Assembly: GCF_044647545.1 (NCBI RefSeq)
Contig: NZ_CP172818.1
Source of the DNA: Escherichia coli
GTDB taxonomy: Bacteria; Pseudomonadota; Gammaproteobacteria; Enterobacterales; Enterobacteriaceae
Length of the DNA: 64,000 bases
Reading direction: 5' to 3' (one strand)
The stretch's first letter is position 1. Each line of letters begins with the position of its first letter. A model generated the notes under the pieces. That model saw nothing but the letters and a program-made list of their open reading frames with translations, ran no database searches and was not told the DNA's origin. A program made the position numbers and the translations under genes. Shown piece after piece: positions 2,954 to 45,479 of this stretch.

Positions 2954-3050
2954 ATCCAACTCCTTTATCTTCTGCGTTAAAAACGCATGGATACCCGTTG
3001 TGAGTGTTTGTGTTGTTATCTCTGCGACTTTTTGTGCGGTTGTGTTTTGG

Positions 3051-3082
<32 letters not shown>

Positions 3083-3649
3083 TTAGGTAACATTTAGTTT
3101 GGATAAATGTAAAGGTATTGCTGTTTTATTGTTTGTTTTTGCGAGATGCGCCGCACCATTCCGAAGCAAAATTCTTAAACTGCACCTTTTTGGTGCTACC
3201 GCTGATTTGTGGTGGTGCAACCCGGTTGCGTCGCGGTTGATTTCATTGCTTACACAGTAAATAAAGCAACTTACATGCCAAAAAATACTTAGGGGTGCAT
3301 TAATTACGATTGTAATTTCAGTTTGAAAAAGTCATATTTCGGACAGTGTTAACTTTTCGGTGTGGGAATTTTGCCGGGATGATAACTACACACGGGAAAA
3401 TGTTTTTTACTAGTCTTTTCAAGGAAAAATCACTTTATGTCTGCATCTTCGGTTAAGCCGTTAAATGTTCAATTACCCGCAATAACCCTGATCCTTTTTG
3501 CGCTCTGTGTTGGGATATTTTGTTACCTCGCACAATGGATGAGTTACAAAAAAGTCAATAAATCCGCACTCATCCATCTCGGCGCTAACTTTCTCTCTCT
3601 CACGTTGTCGGGTAAACCCTGGCGTTTATTTAGCAGTGTCTTTTTACAG

Positions 3650-5060
3650 TATTTTTTCTCTTTTATAGATATATATTTTTGCACTCTGGTTAGGGGGGAG
3701 GGGGGGAAGGGAAAATGGGGAAAAGGGGATCCCTATTGTTTGCCTTTTTCTCTCGGGTTTGTGTGGTGAGCACATCGTCTTGTGTTATGCGCGAAAAAAA
3801 AGAGAAAAGATAGATAGGTGGGGGGGCCGGGGGAAAAAAGGAAAAAAAGGGGGGGCGGTAAGAAAAAAACACTTCTTTAGGGGGGAGAACACAATAAAAA
3901 ACAGCGGCGAGGTTTTTTCCTTTTTGGTGGGGTGGCGCTAACGTTGTGTTGCGGCCCGGGAAAAAGAGAAAAAAAAAGCCTCTTCAATGGCGGGGCCGTG
4001 GGTGGGGGGGGGGGTTGGGTGGGGGGGGGCCCGGTTAGGTGGGACAAAACCGTTTCGTAAGGAAGGGCGAGTTTTTTGTGGCTCTTCTTTTCTCCGGCGG
4101 GGTATTTCGGGTGTGCAGCAGCAGAATGATGAAAAATTTTTTTAAAATAGGGGAAAACCGCGTGAAAAGTTTTTTTCCCAGGAGAATAAACAAAAGGAGC
4201 GAAAAAAAAAACAACAATTTAGGGGGGAGGGCAAAGCCCCCACCGAAACATTATCCGCTCCGGTAAGTCGTGAGGAGGCCAGTGGTGATTTACTCGCTGA
4301 GATTGCCGATAACCATGATATGGCGATCAATCGGGATGGTAATACGTTATATGCCGCAAATGAAAACACGAACAGTATTTTTTTTTTCGACCTCGGACAA
4401 AAGAAAATCTCCCATACTTTTATACCGCCCATAGCAAAAAAAAAAAAACACAAAAATTGTGGGGTCTGTAAAAATAAGGGGGTAAGATGGCGGTGGTTAA
4501 GCCCGAAAAAAAGGTTTTTTTATCCACTTTTATTTAAAATGAATGCGTGATCGTTAATAAAGGGGCGGAGGGGGGGGATAATTCAGTCAATAACCACCTG
4601 CACACATCCTGACAGTTTTATCCTCTCGTGGAATGAAAAAAAAGCTGGGTGAATAATGCAACCAATAAAATGTATTTATTCATCTATTGATTTATTAACT
4701 TATAAGGAAGGAGATGCCGCCCGAAAAAAAAAAAACGGGGGGGGGAGGAGGGGAAAAAGACGCCCGTGTGATATTACTCTCCGCGGTAAAAAAACATTGT
4801 TGATACCGCTTGGATTGAGAGAAAGCATATTCGAATCAATAACATCACGAATCATAAAGTAGAATTTCCCACATGTGATGGGTGTGGTGTCGTTGTTGTG
4901 ATGGGAGTATGATAACGAAAAAATAATAGTATTTTTATCGATAATATCGAGGGTATACGAGTAAAAGTTTAAGGATAGAAAAAAAAGAAGCAAAGATCAA
5001 AAGGGAGTGGTGAAACCGTTATCTCTATTAGGTTGAGAGGCAGGAGTGTAAATAGTTGTG
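3650..5060. repeat. Low-complexity purine homopolymer-rich block (G-runs to 11, A-runs to 12), no coherent ORF
   Basis: Runs of G and A interleaved with short AT-rich stretches; ORF-track peptides here are homopolymer translations (K/G/F runs). Confidence 0.8.
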
Positions 5061-5423
5061 TTTTGGTCTGGATGGCAAAGGGATTGTAACCTTTTTTAAT
5101 ATAAAGCCGGGGAAAAGATTGGCGGTTTTTCTCCCCATAACTTTTATTCTTCTCTGTTTTTCAGCGGATGGTAGAAAGATATTTGTTATGGCGAAGAACG
5201 GGTTAATCCAAATGGACAGGACGCGCTCGCTTGATCCGCAGGCAATTATTCGGCATCCCCAATATGGTGATGTGGCTTGTATCCCTGAACCGTAAGAAAA
5301 AGGGGCATGATAATCACGCCCGAAGTAATGAGAAAGTACGTTTTGTTGATACCGGATGCGGTGTTAACGGTTTATTTAGCCTGCAAAAATGATGCAATTT
5401 TGCAGGCCAGCGCATCATTTACA

Positions 5424-11184: not shown

Positions 11185-12360
11185 ATGACAAATCAACCAA
11201 CGGAAATTGCCATTGTCGGCGGAGGAATGGTCGGCGGCGCACTGGCGCTGGGGCTGGCACAGCACGGATTTGCGGTAACGGTGATCGAGCACGCAGAACC
11301 TGCACCGTTTGTCGCTGACAGCCAGCCTGACGTGCGGATCTCGGCGATTAGTGCGGCTTCGGTATCATTGCTTAAAGGTTTAGGCATCTGGGACGCGGTA
11401 CAGGCTATGCGTTGCCATCCTTACCGCAGACTGGAAACGTGGGAGTGGGAAACGGCGCATGTGGTGTTTGACGCCGCTGAACTTAAGCTACCGTTGCTTG
11501 GCTACATGGTGGAAAACACTGTCCTGCAACAGGCGCTGTGGCAGGCGCTGGAAGCGCATCCGAAAGTAACGTTACGTGTGCCAGGCTCGCTGATTGCATT
11601 ACATCGAGATAATGATCTTCAGGAGCTGGAGCTGAAAGGCGGTGAAGTGATCCAGGCGAAGCTGGTGATTGGCGCTGACGGTGCAAATTCGCAGGTGCGG
11701 CAAATGGCGGGAATTGGCGTTCATGCCTGGCAGTATGCGCAGTCGTGTATGTTGATTAGCGTACAGTGCGAGAATGATCCCGGCGACAGCACCTGGCAGC
11801 AGTTTACTCCGGACGGGCCGCGTGCGTTTTTGCCGCTGTTTGATAACTGGGCGTCGCTGGTGTGGTATGACTCTCCGGCGCGTATTCGCCAGTTGCAGAA
11901 TATGAATATGGCGCAGCTCCAGGCGGAAATCGCGAAGCATTTCCCGTCGCGTCTGGGTTACGTGACACCGCTTGCCGCTGGTGCGTTTCCGCTGACACGT
12001 CGCCATGCGTTGCAGTATGTGCAACCAGGGCTTACGCTGGTGGGCGATGCCGCGCACACCATTCATCCGTTGGCGGGGCAGGGGGTTAACCTCGGTTATC
12101 GCGATGTTGATGCGCTGATTGACGTTCTGGTGAATGCCCGCAGCTACGGTGAAGCGTGGGCCAGTTATCCTGTCCTCAAGCGTTACCAGATGCGGCGTAT
12201 GGCGGATAACTTCATTATGCAAAGCGGTATGGATTTGTTTTATGCCGGATTCAGCAATAATCTGCCACCACTGCGTTTTATGCGTAATCTCGGATTAATG
12301 GCGGCGGAGCGTGCTGGCGTGTTGAAACGTCAGGCGCTGAAATATGCGTTAGGGTTGTAG
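11185..12360 (+). CDS. ubiF: FAD-dependent ubiquinone biosynthesis hydroxylase
   Basis: ORF 11179..12360; GGGMVG dinucleotide-binding motif; start at second Met assumed. Confidence 0.85.
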   Translation: MTNQPTEIAIVGGGMVGGALALGLAQHGFAVTVIEHAEPAPFVADSQPDVRISAISAASVSLLKGLGIWDAVQAMRCHPYRRLETWEWETAHVVFDAAELKLPLLGYMVENTVLQQALWQALEAHPKVTLRVPGSLIALHRDNDLQELELKGGEVIQAKLVIGADGANSQVRQMAGIGVHAWQYAQSCMLISVQCENDPGDSTWQQFTPDGPRAFLPLFDNWASLVWYDSPARIRQLQNMNMAQLQAEIAKHFPSRLGYVTPLAAGAFPLTRRHALQYVQPGLTLVGDAAHTIHPLAGQGVNLGYRDVDALIDVLVNARSYGEAWASYPVLKRYQMRRMADNFIMQSGMDLFYAGFSNNLPPLRFMRNLGLMAAERAGVLKRQALKYALGL

Positions 12361-12390
12361 CCTTACAACATTGCCGGATGCATGCCAACC

Positions 12391-12426
12391 GTAGGTCGGA
12401 TAAGACGCGTCAGCGTCGCATCCGAC
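12391..12426. repeat. REP (repetitive extragenic palindrome) element
   Basis: gtaggtcggataagacgcgtcagcgtcgcatccgac matches REP consensus. Confidence 0.6.
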
Positions 12427-12480
12427 TTTGAAGGATAAGACGTGTCAACATCGCATTCGACATTGAATATACGCAGAAAA

Positions 12481-12510
12481 GCAAAAAGCTCGCCGAAGCG
12501 AGCTTTTTTA
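12481..12510. terminator. Bidirectional intrinsic terminator (ubiF / tRNA operon)
   Basis: Hairpin gctcgc-cgaa-gcgagc flanked by A-run and T-run. Confidence 0.6.
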
Positions 12511-12513
12511 ATG

Positions 12514-12588
12514 TGGCTGGGGTACGAGGATTCGAACCTCGGAATGCCGGAATCAGAATCCGGTGCCTTACCGCTTGGCGATACCCCA
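12514..12588 (-). tRNA. glnX: tRNA-Gln (anticodon CUG)
   Basis: 75-nt cloverleaf sequence read on reverse strand, anticodon loop UUCUGAU, 3' CCA encoded. Confidence 0.9.
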
Positions 12589-12625
12589 ACTGGGTGCACT
12601 TACAAGGTAAGCGTCTTGAATAAAT

Positions 12626-12700
12626 TGGCTGGGGTACGAGGATTCGAACCTCGGAATGCCGGAATCAGAATCCGGTGCCTTACCGCTTGGCGATACCCCA
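12626..12700 (-). tRNA. glnV: tRNA-Gln (anticodon CUG)
   Basis: Identical copy of the preceding tRNA-Gln(CUG). Confidence 0.9.
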
Positions 12701-12748
12701 ACAAATTGGTTTTTGAATTTGCCGAACTTATTCGACACATTCAGAATT

Positions 12749-12825
12749 TGGTGGCTACGACGGGATTCGAACCTGTGACCCCATCATTATGAGTGATGTG
12801 CTCTAACCAACTGAGCTACGTAGCC
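12749..12825 (-). tRNA. metU: tRNA-Met elongator (anticodon CAU)
   Basis: 77-nt tRNA, anticodon loop with CAU, 3' CCA. Confidence 0.9.
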
Positions 12826-12840
12826 AGATTGTTTCTTCGA

Positions 12841-12915
12841 TGGCTGGGGTACCTGGATTCGAACCAGGGAATGCCGGTATCAAAAACCGGTGCCTTACCG
12901 CTTGGCGATACCCCA
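12841..12915 (-). tRNA. glnW: tRNA-Gln (anticodon UUG)
   Basis: 75-nt tRNA, anticodon loop UUUUGAU. Confidence 0.9.
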
Positions 12916-12949
12916 ATAACCGGGCGGTGAACCGCTTACTCGAAGAAGA

Positions 12950-13024
12950 TGGCTGGGGTACCTGGATTCGAACCAGGGAATGCCGGTATCAAAAACCGGT
13001 GCCTTACCGCTTGGCGATACCCCA
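12950..13024 (-). tRNA. glnU: tRNA-Gln (anticodon UUG)
   Basis: Identical copy of tRNA-Gln(UUG). Confidence 0.9.
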
Positions 13025-13047
13025 TCCGTACAACGCTTTCTGGTGAA

Positions 13048-13132
13048 TGGTGCGGGAGGCGAGACTTGAACTCGCACACCTTGCGGCGCCAGAACCTAAA
13101 TCTGGTGCGTCTACCAATTTCGCCACTCCCGC
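13048..13132 (-). tRNA. leuW: tRNA-Leu (anticodon UAG)
   Basis: 85-nt class II tRNA with long variable arm. Confidence 0.9.
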
Positions 13133-13140
13133 AAAAAAGA

Positions 13141-13217
13141 TGGTGGCTACGACGGGATTCGAACCTGTGACCCCATCATTATGAGTGATGTGCTCTAACC
13201 AACTGAGCTACGTAGCC
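13141..13217 (-). tRNA. metT: tRNA-Met elongator (anticodon CAU)
   Basis: Identical to the metU copy at 12749..12825. Confidence 0.9.
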
Positions 13218-13256
13218 ATCTTTTTTTTCGCGATACCTTATCGGCGTTGCGGGGCG

Positions 13257-13286
13257 CATTATGCGTATAGAGCCTTGCAGCGTCAA
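13257..13286 (-). promoter_or_regulatory. Candidate sigma70 promoter of the metT tRNA operon with GC-rich discriminator
   Basis: On minus strand TTGACG, 17-nt spacer, CATAAT, then GCGCCCC discriminator immediately upstream of metT. Confidence 0.5.
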
Positions 13287-13586
13287 CCTCTTTTTCAAGG
13301 AAAATTGCTCGAAAGTGACTGTTTGGTTAGGTTGCGAACAGCGTGGCGCTATATTCGTCAATTATTGTTTACTTTGTGTTTTTTCCCCACCCTACAGCCA
13401 TTCTTTTGTCATACAGGATGAAATTCGGAATTCAACAATAGTGGTGGGAAATTAATCTATGAAATACTCCCTTCAACAACACAGGATTACCTCATTTCTA
13501 CCACACATTTATTAGGAATACTATCTTTTATACATTATTACTTAAACCTCCAACCAAACCGAAAAAAATATTTTTTAAAATTAAAA

Positions 13587-13645
<59 letters not shown>

Positions 13646-13744
13646 GAAGCGTGGCCTACAGTGATGAATTGTCAAACAGTGATGTGGCAAACCCGGAACA
13701 TTTCCTTACTGCATATCAGAATCAACAAGCACCTCAATAACTGA

Positions 13745-22056: not shown

Positions 22057-22219
22057 AACAATGACAAGCGGTGGAGATCTTCTCTGTCGCTTTTTTTTTC
22101 ATCAATCATCCCCATAATCTCAGTGAGATTTTCGATTTTCACTAACTAACAGTTGTCAGCCTGTCCCGCTTATAAGATCATACGCCGTTATACGTTGTTT
22201 ACGCTTTGAGGAATCCACG

Positions 22220-23884
22220 ATGAGTGAGGCAGAAGCCCGCCCGACTAACTTTATTCGTCAGATCATCGATGAAGATCTGGCCAGTGGTAAGCACACCACA
22301 GTACACACCCGTTTCCCGCCGGAGCCGAATGGCTATCTGCATATTGGCCATGCGAAATCTATCTGCCTGAACTTCGGGATCGCCCAGGACTATAAAGGCC
22401 AGTGCAACCTGCGTTTCGACGACACTAACCCGGTAAAAGAAGATATCGAGTATGTTGAGTCGATCAAAAACGACGTTGAGTGGTTAGGTTTTCACTGGTC
22501 TGGTAACGTCCGTTACTCCTCCGATTATTTTGATCAGCTCCACGCCTATGCGATCGAACTGATCAATAAAGGCCTGGCGTACGTTGATGAACTGACACCG
22601 GAACAGATCCGCGAATACCGCGGCACCCTGACGCAGCCGGGTAAAAACAGCCCGTACCGCGACCGCAGCGTTGAAGAGAACCTGGCGCTGTTCGAGAAAA
22701 TGCGTACCGGCGGTTTTGAAGAAGGTAAAGCCTGCCTGCGTGCGAAGATCGACATGGCTTCGCCGTTTATCGTGATGCGCGATCCGGTGCTGTACCGCAT
22801 TAAGTTTGCTGAACACCACCAGACTGGCAACAAGTGGTGCATCTACCCGATGTACGACTTTACCCACTGCATCAGCGATGCGCTGGAAGGTATTACGCAC
22901 TCTCTGTGTACGCTTGAGTTCCAGGACAACCGTCGCCTGTACGACTGGGTGCTGGACAACATCACCATTCCTGTTCACCCGCGCCAGTACGAATTCTCGC
23001 GCCTGAATCTGGAATACACTGTGATGTCCAAGCGTAAGCTGAACCTGCTGGTGACCGACAAGCACGTTGAAGGCTGGGATGACCCGCGTATGCCGACCAT
23101 TTCCGGTCTGCGTCGTCGTGGTTACACTGCGGCTTCTATTCGTGAGTTCTGCAAACGCATCGGCGTGACCAAGCAGGACAACACCATTGAGATGGCGTCG
23201 CTGGAATCCTGCATCCGTGAAGATCTCAACGAAAACGCCCCGCGCGCAATGGCGGTTATCGATCCGGTGAAACTGGTTATCGAAAACTATCAGGGCGAAG
23301 GCGAAATGGTTACCATGCCGAACCATCCGAACAAACCGGAAATGGGGAGCCGTCAGGTGCCGTTTAGCGGTGAGATTTGGATCGATCGCGCCGATTTCCG
23401 CGAAGAAGCTAACAAGCAGTACAAACGTCTGGTGCTGGGTAAAGAAGTGCGTCTGCGTAATGCTTACGTCATTAAGGCAGAACGCGTGGAGAAAGATGCC
23501 GAAGGCAATATCACCACCATCTTCTGTACTTATGACGCCGACACCTTAAGCAAAGATCCGGCAGATGGTCGTAAAGTCAAAGGCGTTATTCACTGGGTGA
23601 GCGCGGCACATGCGCTGCCGGTTGAAATCCGTTTGTATGACCGTCTGTTCAGCGTGCCGAACCCTGGTGCTGCGGATGATTTCCTGTCGGTGATTAACCC
23701 GGAATCGCTGGTGATCAAACAGGGCTTTGCTGAACCGTCGCTGAAAGATGCGGTAGCGGGTAAAGCATTCCAGTTTGAGCGTGAAGGTTACTTCTGTCTC
23801 GACAGCCGCCATTCTACGGCGGAAAAACCGGTATTTAACCGCACCGTTGGGTTGCGTGATACCTGGGCGAAAGTAGGCGAGTAA
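22220..23884 (+). CDS. glnS: Glutaminyl-tRNA synthetase
   Basis: 554 aa ORF with HIGH (HIGH at N-term) and VMSKR (KMSKS-type) motifs. Confidence 0.9.
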
Positions 23885-23903
23885 GTTTACGTTGTCGGAT
23901 AGA

Positions 23904-45322: not shown

Positions 45323-45479
45323 TTGCTGAGTTCTGAATACATTGAAAACCGCCAGCGGAAACGCTGGCGGTTTTATATAAATTTTCCTATTTTCTTTCTA
45401 CATTCTCACTTAAGCTTTCTTTAAATCTGTAGTTTCGCCTGTCAGCAGACAAATAACCCGATAAAACAAGGATGAGCAG

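Follow-up and report, generated by a model that had tools for sequence, protein, structure and literature searches.

Seven tRNA genes in three identical pairs and one tRNA-Leu gene: the metT operon on an Escherichia coli chromosome and the variation around it

Seven tRNA genes lie on the minus strand between positions 12514 and 13217 of the window, by which is meant the whole 64-kb stretch of Escherichia coli DNA that was analysed. These are exactly the tRNA genes that ARAGORN recovered in the window, and their outer coordinates match those that a preliminary description had assigned to a seven-tRNA operon on this strand; additionally, the RF00005 model of Rfam, whose gathering score is 29, matched all seven independently at 57.6-71.1 bits. 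In the direction of transcription, the array opens with metT, an elongator tRNA-Met(CAU) gene of 77 nt with an encoded CCA (13141-13217; ARAGORN, Rfam 71.1 bits), which is followed by leuW, a tRNA-Leu(UAG) gene of 85 nt (13048-13132; ARAGORN, Rfam 57.6 bits), and by glnU, a tRNA-Gln(UUG) gene of 75 nt (12950-13024; ARAGORN, Rfam 62.1 bits). The next gene, glnW (12841-12915), is a second tRNA-Gln(UUG) gene identical to glnU, at a start-to-start spacing of 109 nt, and metU (12749-12825) is an elongator tRNA-Met(CAU) gene identical to metT, at a spacing of 392 nt. The array closes with two tRNA-Gln(CUG) genes, glnV of 75 nt (12626-12700; ARAGORN, Rfam 62.0 bits) and the identical glnX (12514-12588), spaced by 112 nt. 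The resulting order, Met(CAU)-Leu(UAG)-Gln(UUG)-Gln(UUG)-Met(CAU)-Gln(CUG)-Gln(CUG), is the one on which ARAGORN, Rfam and the K-12 annotation agree, and the 3' CCA can be read from the sequence in all seven genes.

[quoted passage not shown] It had also called the duplicates pairwise identical and had proposed their alignment as a check. When the copies were aligned, all three pairs proved to be 100% identical, the Met pair over 77 of 77 nt and likewise the Gln(UUG) and the Gln(CUG) pairs. According to a repeat finder, this identity is essentially limited to the tRNA genes themselves, the spacers being unrelated. Between the two kinds of tRNA-Gln gene, seven positions differ. One is the anticodon base, and the other six make up three compensatory swaps of base pairs, of which one turns A-T into T-A at the closing pair of the anticodon stem and the other two affect pairs in the T stem. 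Such a pattern is what would be expected for two functional isoacceptors.

Regarding the pair with the CAU anticodon, the detectors label any CAT anticodon as Met, and the label alone does not discriminate an elongator from the initiator tRNA-fMet or from tRNA-Ile2, which carries CAU before lysidine modification. That either of these is encoded here is, however, exceedingly improbable, considering that both genes are identical in sequence to metT and metU, annotated as tRNA-Met(CAU) in NC_000913.3, and that G1 can form a Watson-Crick pair with C73, the base preceding the terminal ACCA. The E. coli initiators carry a C1-A72 mismatch, and ileX and ileY have a different sequence. On the identity to K-12 metT and metU and the G1-C73 pairing, the initiator and tRNA-Ile2 assignments were rejected, and the two genes are, judged from their sequence, elongator tRNA-Met genes.

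Upstream of metT, a consensus scan placed a putative promoter on the minus strand, with the -35 hexamer TTGACG at 13281-13286 and the -10 hexamer CATAAT at 13258-13263, separated by a 17-nt spacer and both identical in K-12 and IMT16316. The hexamers are sigma-70-like, with 10 of 12 consensus matches, and this was the only promoter-like site found on either strand of 12200-13700. The scan is not significant when taken by itself, as it found one site where chance would yield 2.1 in 1.5 kb, and therefore the case for this promoter is carried by its position, 41 nt before metT, and by its perfect conservation. As the preliminary description had maintained, the promoter contains a GC-rich discriminator, since the sequence GCGCCCCGC (13249-13257, minus strand) can be read directly after CATAAT. 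From this arrangement, the transcription start would fall at about 13249-13251, and the position of the promoter predicts a 5' leader of roughly 32 nt (13218-13248, minus strand), which would be removed by RNase P. A 5' non-coding region has in fact been reported on the K-12 metT operon precursors (PMC2241853).

A G/C-rich discriminator, placed between the -10 hexamer and the transcription start, is, in the summary of Travers 1980 that PMC8422995 provides, a classical mark of stable-RNA promoters and of their stringent and supercoiling control. From the G+C-rich discriminator, we infer that the metT promoter may likewise be repressed by ppGpp/DksA, that is, be under stringent control. A literature search returned general papers on discriminators, and no paper testing ppGpp control of the metT promoter was found in the library searched.

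At the other end of the array, a terminator scan and an inverted-repeat search both located a Rho-independent terminator on the minus strand (12474-12508), composed of an 11-bp stem (AAAAAGCUCGC/GCGAGCUUUUU), a UUCG loop and a U-rich tail. The hairpin starts five nucleotides past glnX and its sequence is identical in K-12. RNA folding gave -17.9 kcal/mol with z = -4.1, and none of 200 shuffles folded as well. The hairpin itself (12483-12508) lies between a run of A and a run of T, and thus it may also end the convergent ubiF transcript. Two tandem 35-nt palindromic units (GGATAAGACGCGTCAGCGTCGCATCCGAC...), which we take to be REP-like, occupy 12395-12467, between the stop codon of ubiF and the terminator of the operon.

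In the K-12 MG1655 chromosome (NC_000913.3), glnX, glnV, metU, glnW, glnU, leuW and metT are annotated between ubiF, which is convergent, and asnB, which lies upstream on the same strand. A three-way alignment of 12380-13470 with K-12 and with strain IMT16316 (NZ_CP023815.1) showed that the window is base-for-base identical to IMT16316 over 12380-13468, and that it shares with K-12 the seven mature tRNAs, the promoter hexamers, the discriminator, the terminator and the ubiF and asnB flanks. The differences from K-12 are confined to the metT-leuW spacer, which is shorter by one T, the metU-glnV spacer, which has two substitutions and an additional A, several substituted positions downstream of the terminator, and a garbled accessory insert in the asnB-metT intergenic region, where K-12 has no insert. 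The sequence features that define the metT operon were all found, namely the gene order, tRNAs identical to those of K-12, the position between ubiF and asnB, a single upstream promoter motif and a terminator after glnX. With near certainty, the locus is the canonical, K-12-like E. coli metT (supB-E) seven-tRNA operon, which would be read as a single transcript from promoter to terminator. The locus is also highly conserved, since a 1.3-kb query matched 5,425 of 5,426 complete E. coli genomes and an 831-nt query restricted to the operon matched 5,424 of 5,426, with an identity of at least 99% in 5,296 of them.

The surroundings of the operon bear on a different origin, in which the array would be part of a mobile element or its attachment site, such as a tRNA-linked island or a phage or plasmid tRNA cluster. 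This idea draws on the fact that tRNA genes are frequent sites of island integration, on a few plasmid places that match the tRNA sequence, and on a strain-variable 431-nt insert that 986 of 5,426 genomes carry between asnB and the promoter of the operon. However, the neighbours of the operon (miaB, ubiF, asnB, nagD and nagC) are all housekeeping genes, in the same synteny as in K-12, and the Pfam families of the flanking ORFs are a FAD-dependent monooxygenase (ubiF), an asparagine synthase (asnB), a radical-SAM/TRAM methylthiotransferase (miaB) and a HAD phosphatase (nagD). Among these five neighbours there is no integrase next to the tRNA genes. Moreover, a search with the 23-nt 3' end of glnX, allowing up to three mismatches, matched only the four Gln genes in the 64 kb, so that neither a partial tRNA 3'-end copy elsewhere in the window nor an att-like repeat was found. 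The variable insert lies upstream of the promoter rather than at a tRNA 3' end; its only ORF, of 145 aa, matches no Pfam family, and it carries no integrase. The locus itself is found on essentially every E. coli chromosome. A mobile-element origin was rejected for this window on the housekeeping flanks, the K-12 synteny and the lack of an integrase and of an att repeat, and it is left with almost no probability; the earlier remark that no integrase or island is attached is thus borne out.

The variable insert deserves separate consideration, because the asnB-metT intergenic region is polymorphic at a site about 250 bp upstream of the metT promoter. In K-12, ...CACTGTAGGCC is followed immediately by AGTATTTCATAG..., with nothing between, and IMT16316 carries at this site 431 nt in which the opposite strand holds an ORF of 145 aa; the product is annotated as a hypothetical protein (WP_000943487.1). 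The intact ORF, at 3551-3988 (+) of L001, which is equivalent to 13469-13652 of the window, has a hydrophobic signal-like N-terminus (MLRFMTALMGALLLMQSAFA), and a Pfam scan of this 145-aa ORF matched no family. Its presence or absence is a polymorphism located exactly between ...GTAGGCC and AGTATTTC..., and the 431-nt insert occurs once per chromosome in the genomes that carry it. In the window, the same site is occupied by 184 nt (13469-13652), a T-rich skeleton on the minus strand that includes, on the plus strand, a run of 49 A residues at 13588-13636.

The relation between this tract and the IMT16316 insert is one of deletion only, for which reason a MAFFT alignment of the two was uninformative; the comparison was therefore made by longest common subsequence and by T-anchored segment tests. 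The longest common subsequence reached 182 of 184, against 152-158 for shuffles (sd 2-4, maximum 165). On the minus strand, both sequences contain 107 T residues, and when they were split at every T, 104 of the 108 inter-T segments of the tract were subsequences of the matching reference segments. The equal T count and the subsequence relation of the segments mean that no T was lost, whereas the tract lacks 94% of the C, 64% of the A and 67% of the G residues of the insert. In a distant-mode BLAST search, the 119-nt non-homopolymer part of the tract had no match in 5,426 E. coli genomes, and thus the tract is no natural allele seen elsewhere. A status as third allele was rejected, the tract being the IMT16316 insert with bases missing. 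We know of no biological process that keeps every T and drops most of the other bases. Almost certainly, the 184-nt tract is an artefact of sequence quality that stems from the source record or from the way it was prepared. That it is genuine DNA, in which a base-selective process collapsed the accessory gene into a T-rich tract with its A49 run, is very unlikely; if it were so, the promoter of an essential tRNA operon would have a homopolymer-rich element about 200-400 bp upstream, and the length of this element could modulate the upstream promoter context.

The artefact at 13469-13652 has a counterpart in the window. At 3048-5143, between lnt and gltI, lies a garbled version of a gene annotated in IMT16316 as a rhomboid family intramembrane serine protease (WP_022645354.1). 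Over this stretch the identity to IMT16316 falls to 81.7%, with 266 mismatches, 78 gaps and homopolymer smearing, against more than 99.8% in the flanks; the homopolymers comprise A28 at the very start (3051-3078) and G11 and A10-A13 around 4004-4735. The stretch appears to be the same kind of artefact as 13469-13652. For both, IMT16316 has an annotated gene; the 431-nt insert is absent from K-12 and the rhomboid-family protease gene presumably so as well, and the core that flanks them is 99.8-99.99% accurate relative to IMT16316. Given two such stretches, any unusual low-complexity feature of this window calls for comparison with a close relative ahead of any interpretation.

With corrupted segments at 3048-5143 and 13469-13652, the second only about 250 nt from the operon, it might be asked whether the identical tRNA pairs are themselves a spurious duplication introduced by assembly. 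This is extremely improbable, because the same seven genes with the same spacers are annotated in K-12 MG1655 and in IMT16316, and four tRNA-Gln genes are listed for most of the genomes sampled below. The corruption does not touch the operon, since the sequence is identical to IMT16316 up to 13468 and corruption begins only at 13469. A spurious duplication was accordingly rejected.

The expression of the operon is best known from K-12, in which Mohanty and Kushner demonstrated by northern analysis that all seven tRNAs reside on one transcript (PMC2241853). In that strain, the terminator is first removed, mainly by RNase E, the five upstream tRNAs are separated by RNase P, the distal glnV and glnX are separated by RNase E, and the 3' ends are completed by RNases T, PH and D (PMC2241853). 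Since the sequence is identical to that of K-12, the same cotranscription and the same RNase E and RNase P processing are assumed for the strain studied here. Accordingly worded as a model, one sigma-70 promoter with a G+C-rich discriminator would drive a single transcript, about 0.75 kb long, with its end at the intrinsic terminator just past glnX. The terminator would be cut off mainly by RNase E, which would also split off the distal glnV and glnX units; RNase P would then part the upstream tRNAs by cutting at the mature 5' end of each, and every tRNA would be trimmed by 3' exonucleases to its encoded CCA. Other operons of E. coli, such as argX-hisR-leuT-proM and glyW-cysT-leuZ, are likewise transcribed as multi-tRNA precursors that endonucleases cut into pre-tRNAs; however, these require initial RNase E cuts between the tRNAs, whereas the upstream tRNAs of the metT transcript use RNase P (PMC2241853). 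A further difference is that three identical gene pairs are found in the metT operon and in none of the operons of the argX-hisR-leuT-proM and glyW-cysT-leuZ type.

The identical tandem copies would be expected to raise the gene dosage and, at the same time, to serve as substrates for unequal homologous recombination, by which whole repeat units could be removed and maybe added. Additionally, the redundancy that they provide may leave one copy free to mutate to a nonsense suppressor. The preliminary description had regarded the copies as direct repeats prone to recombination, and this view gained support from MG1655p, EC332 and AGR4587, genomes from which exactly one Gln unit is missing. ARAGORN found six tRNAs in MG1655p, with one Gln(UUG) unit absent, and six each in EC332 and AGR4587, with one Gln(CUG) unit absent. 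In DH5alpha, it found seven tRNAs, of which the distal CUG copy has the anticodon CTA (CUA, of the amber-suppressor type); this copy is presumably the supE44/glnV44 marker of the strain. The DH5alpha annotation lists "tRNA-Gln (x3)" despite full coverage because the CTA copy was left unannotated by PGAP.

The frequency of copy-number variants was followed in a sample of 60 rows spread over the 5,424 genomes that match the 831-nt query. Four tRNA-Gln genes were listed in 54 of these rows. One CUG unit was absent in two, three tRNA-Gln genes were listed despite full query coverage in three (one of which is DH5alpha, with its unannotated copy), and the query match was 15% in the remaining one. 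Single-unit copy variants are therefore rare. Within the same sample, no genome was seen without the 392-nt unit that extends from metT to metU. The K-12 tRNA set is known to have all of its four tRNA-Gln genes in the metT operon, together with its two elongator tRNA-Met genes and its sole tRNA-Leu(UAG) gene. From that set it follows that deletion of the 392-nt unit, which would take leuW and both Gln(UUG) genes, should be lethal.

Short queries taken from the spacers were also run by megablast against the 5,426 genomes. The 37-nt glnV-glnX spacer matched 3,565 genomes and the 34-nt glnU-glnW spacer 4,669, counts that cannot be taken for unit loss, since one SNP is enough to break the 28-nt seed that megablast requires; the 831-nt query, by comparison, is found at a coverage of at least 80% in one place in 5,356 genomes. 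Across the genome collection, the glnV-glnX spacer occurs at up to four places per genome and the glnU-glnW spacer at up to three, in one case on a plasmid. Multiple spacer places within a genome suggest that, in some strains, Gln units have on rare occasions expanded in tandem. That the rare loss and possible gain of Gln units tune the dosage of tRNA-Gln adaptively, instead of reflecting neutral slippage, is an unlikely reading.

Knowledge of the operon dates back to its first description by Nakajima, Ozeki and Shimura (Cell 1981, 23:239), as listed in reference 32 of PMC4041420, and the 1981 description is also cited in PMC9514646. With its processing published as well, the locus is real but ordinary, and an arrangement that is nearly invariant across E. 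coli carries little weight as a discovery. It is useful as a positive control for the recognition of tRNA genes, promoter and terminator from raw sequence, and it offers a clean case in which tandem tRNA genes of identical sequence lose one unit at a time in real genomes and allow suppressor alleles, as in the CTA copy of DH5alpha.

Some further observations concern the rest of the window. By collinearity with IMT16316, glnS, the gene for glutaminyl-tRNA synthetase, lies on the minus strand at about 22200-23900, some 9 kb from the four tRNA-Gln genes, an arrangement known from the K-12 map. Across its collinear core, the window shares 99.8-99.99% identity with IMT16316, and collinearity stops at 62186, near abrB, the last 1.8 kb (62187-64000) being different. 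Relative to IMT16316, the window also contains an insertion of about 8 kb at 45375-53393, whose G+C content is 0.60-0.66 over 45501-49000 and 50001-51000, after which the sequence becomes A+T-rich. This insertion matches, in several pieces and at about 95-96%, rhsC (RHS element core protein), ybfB/ybfC/ybfD and ISAs1-family transposase genes of other E. coli.
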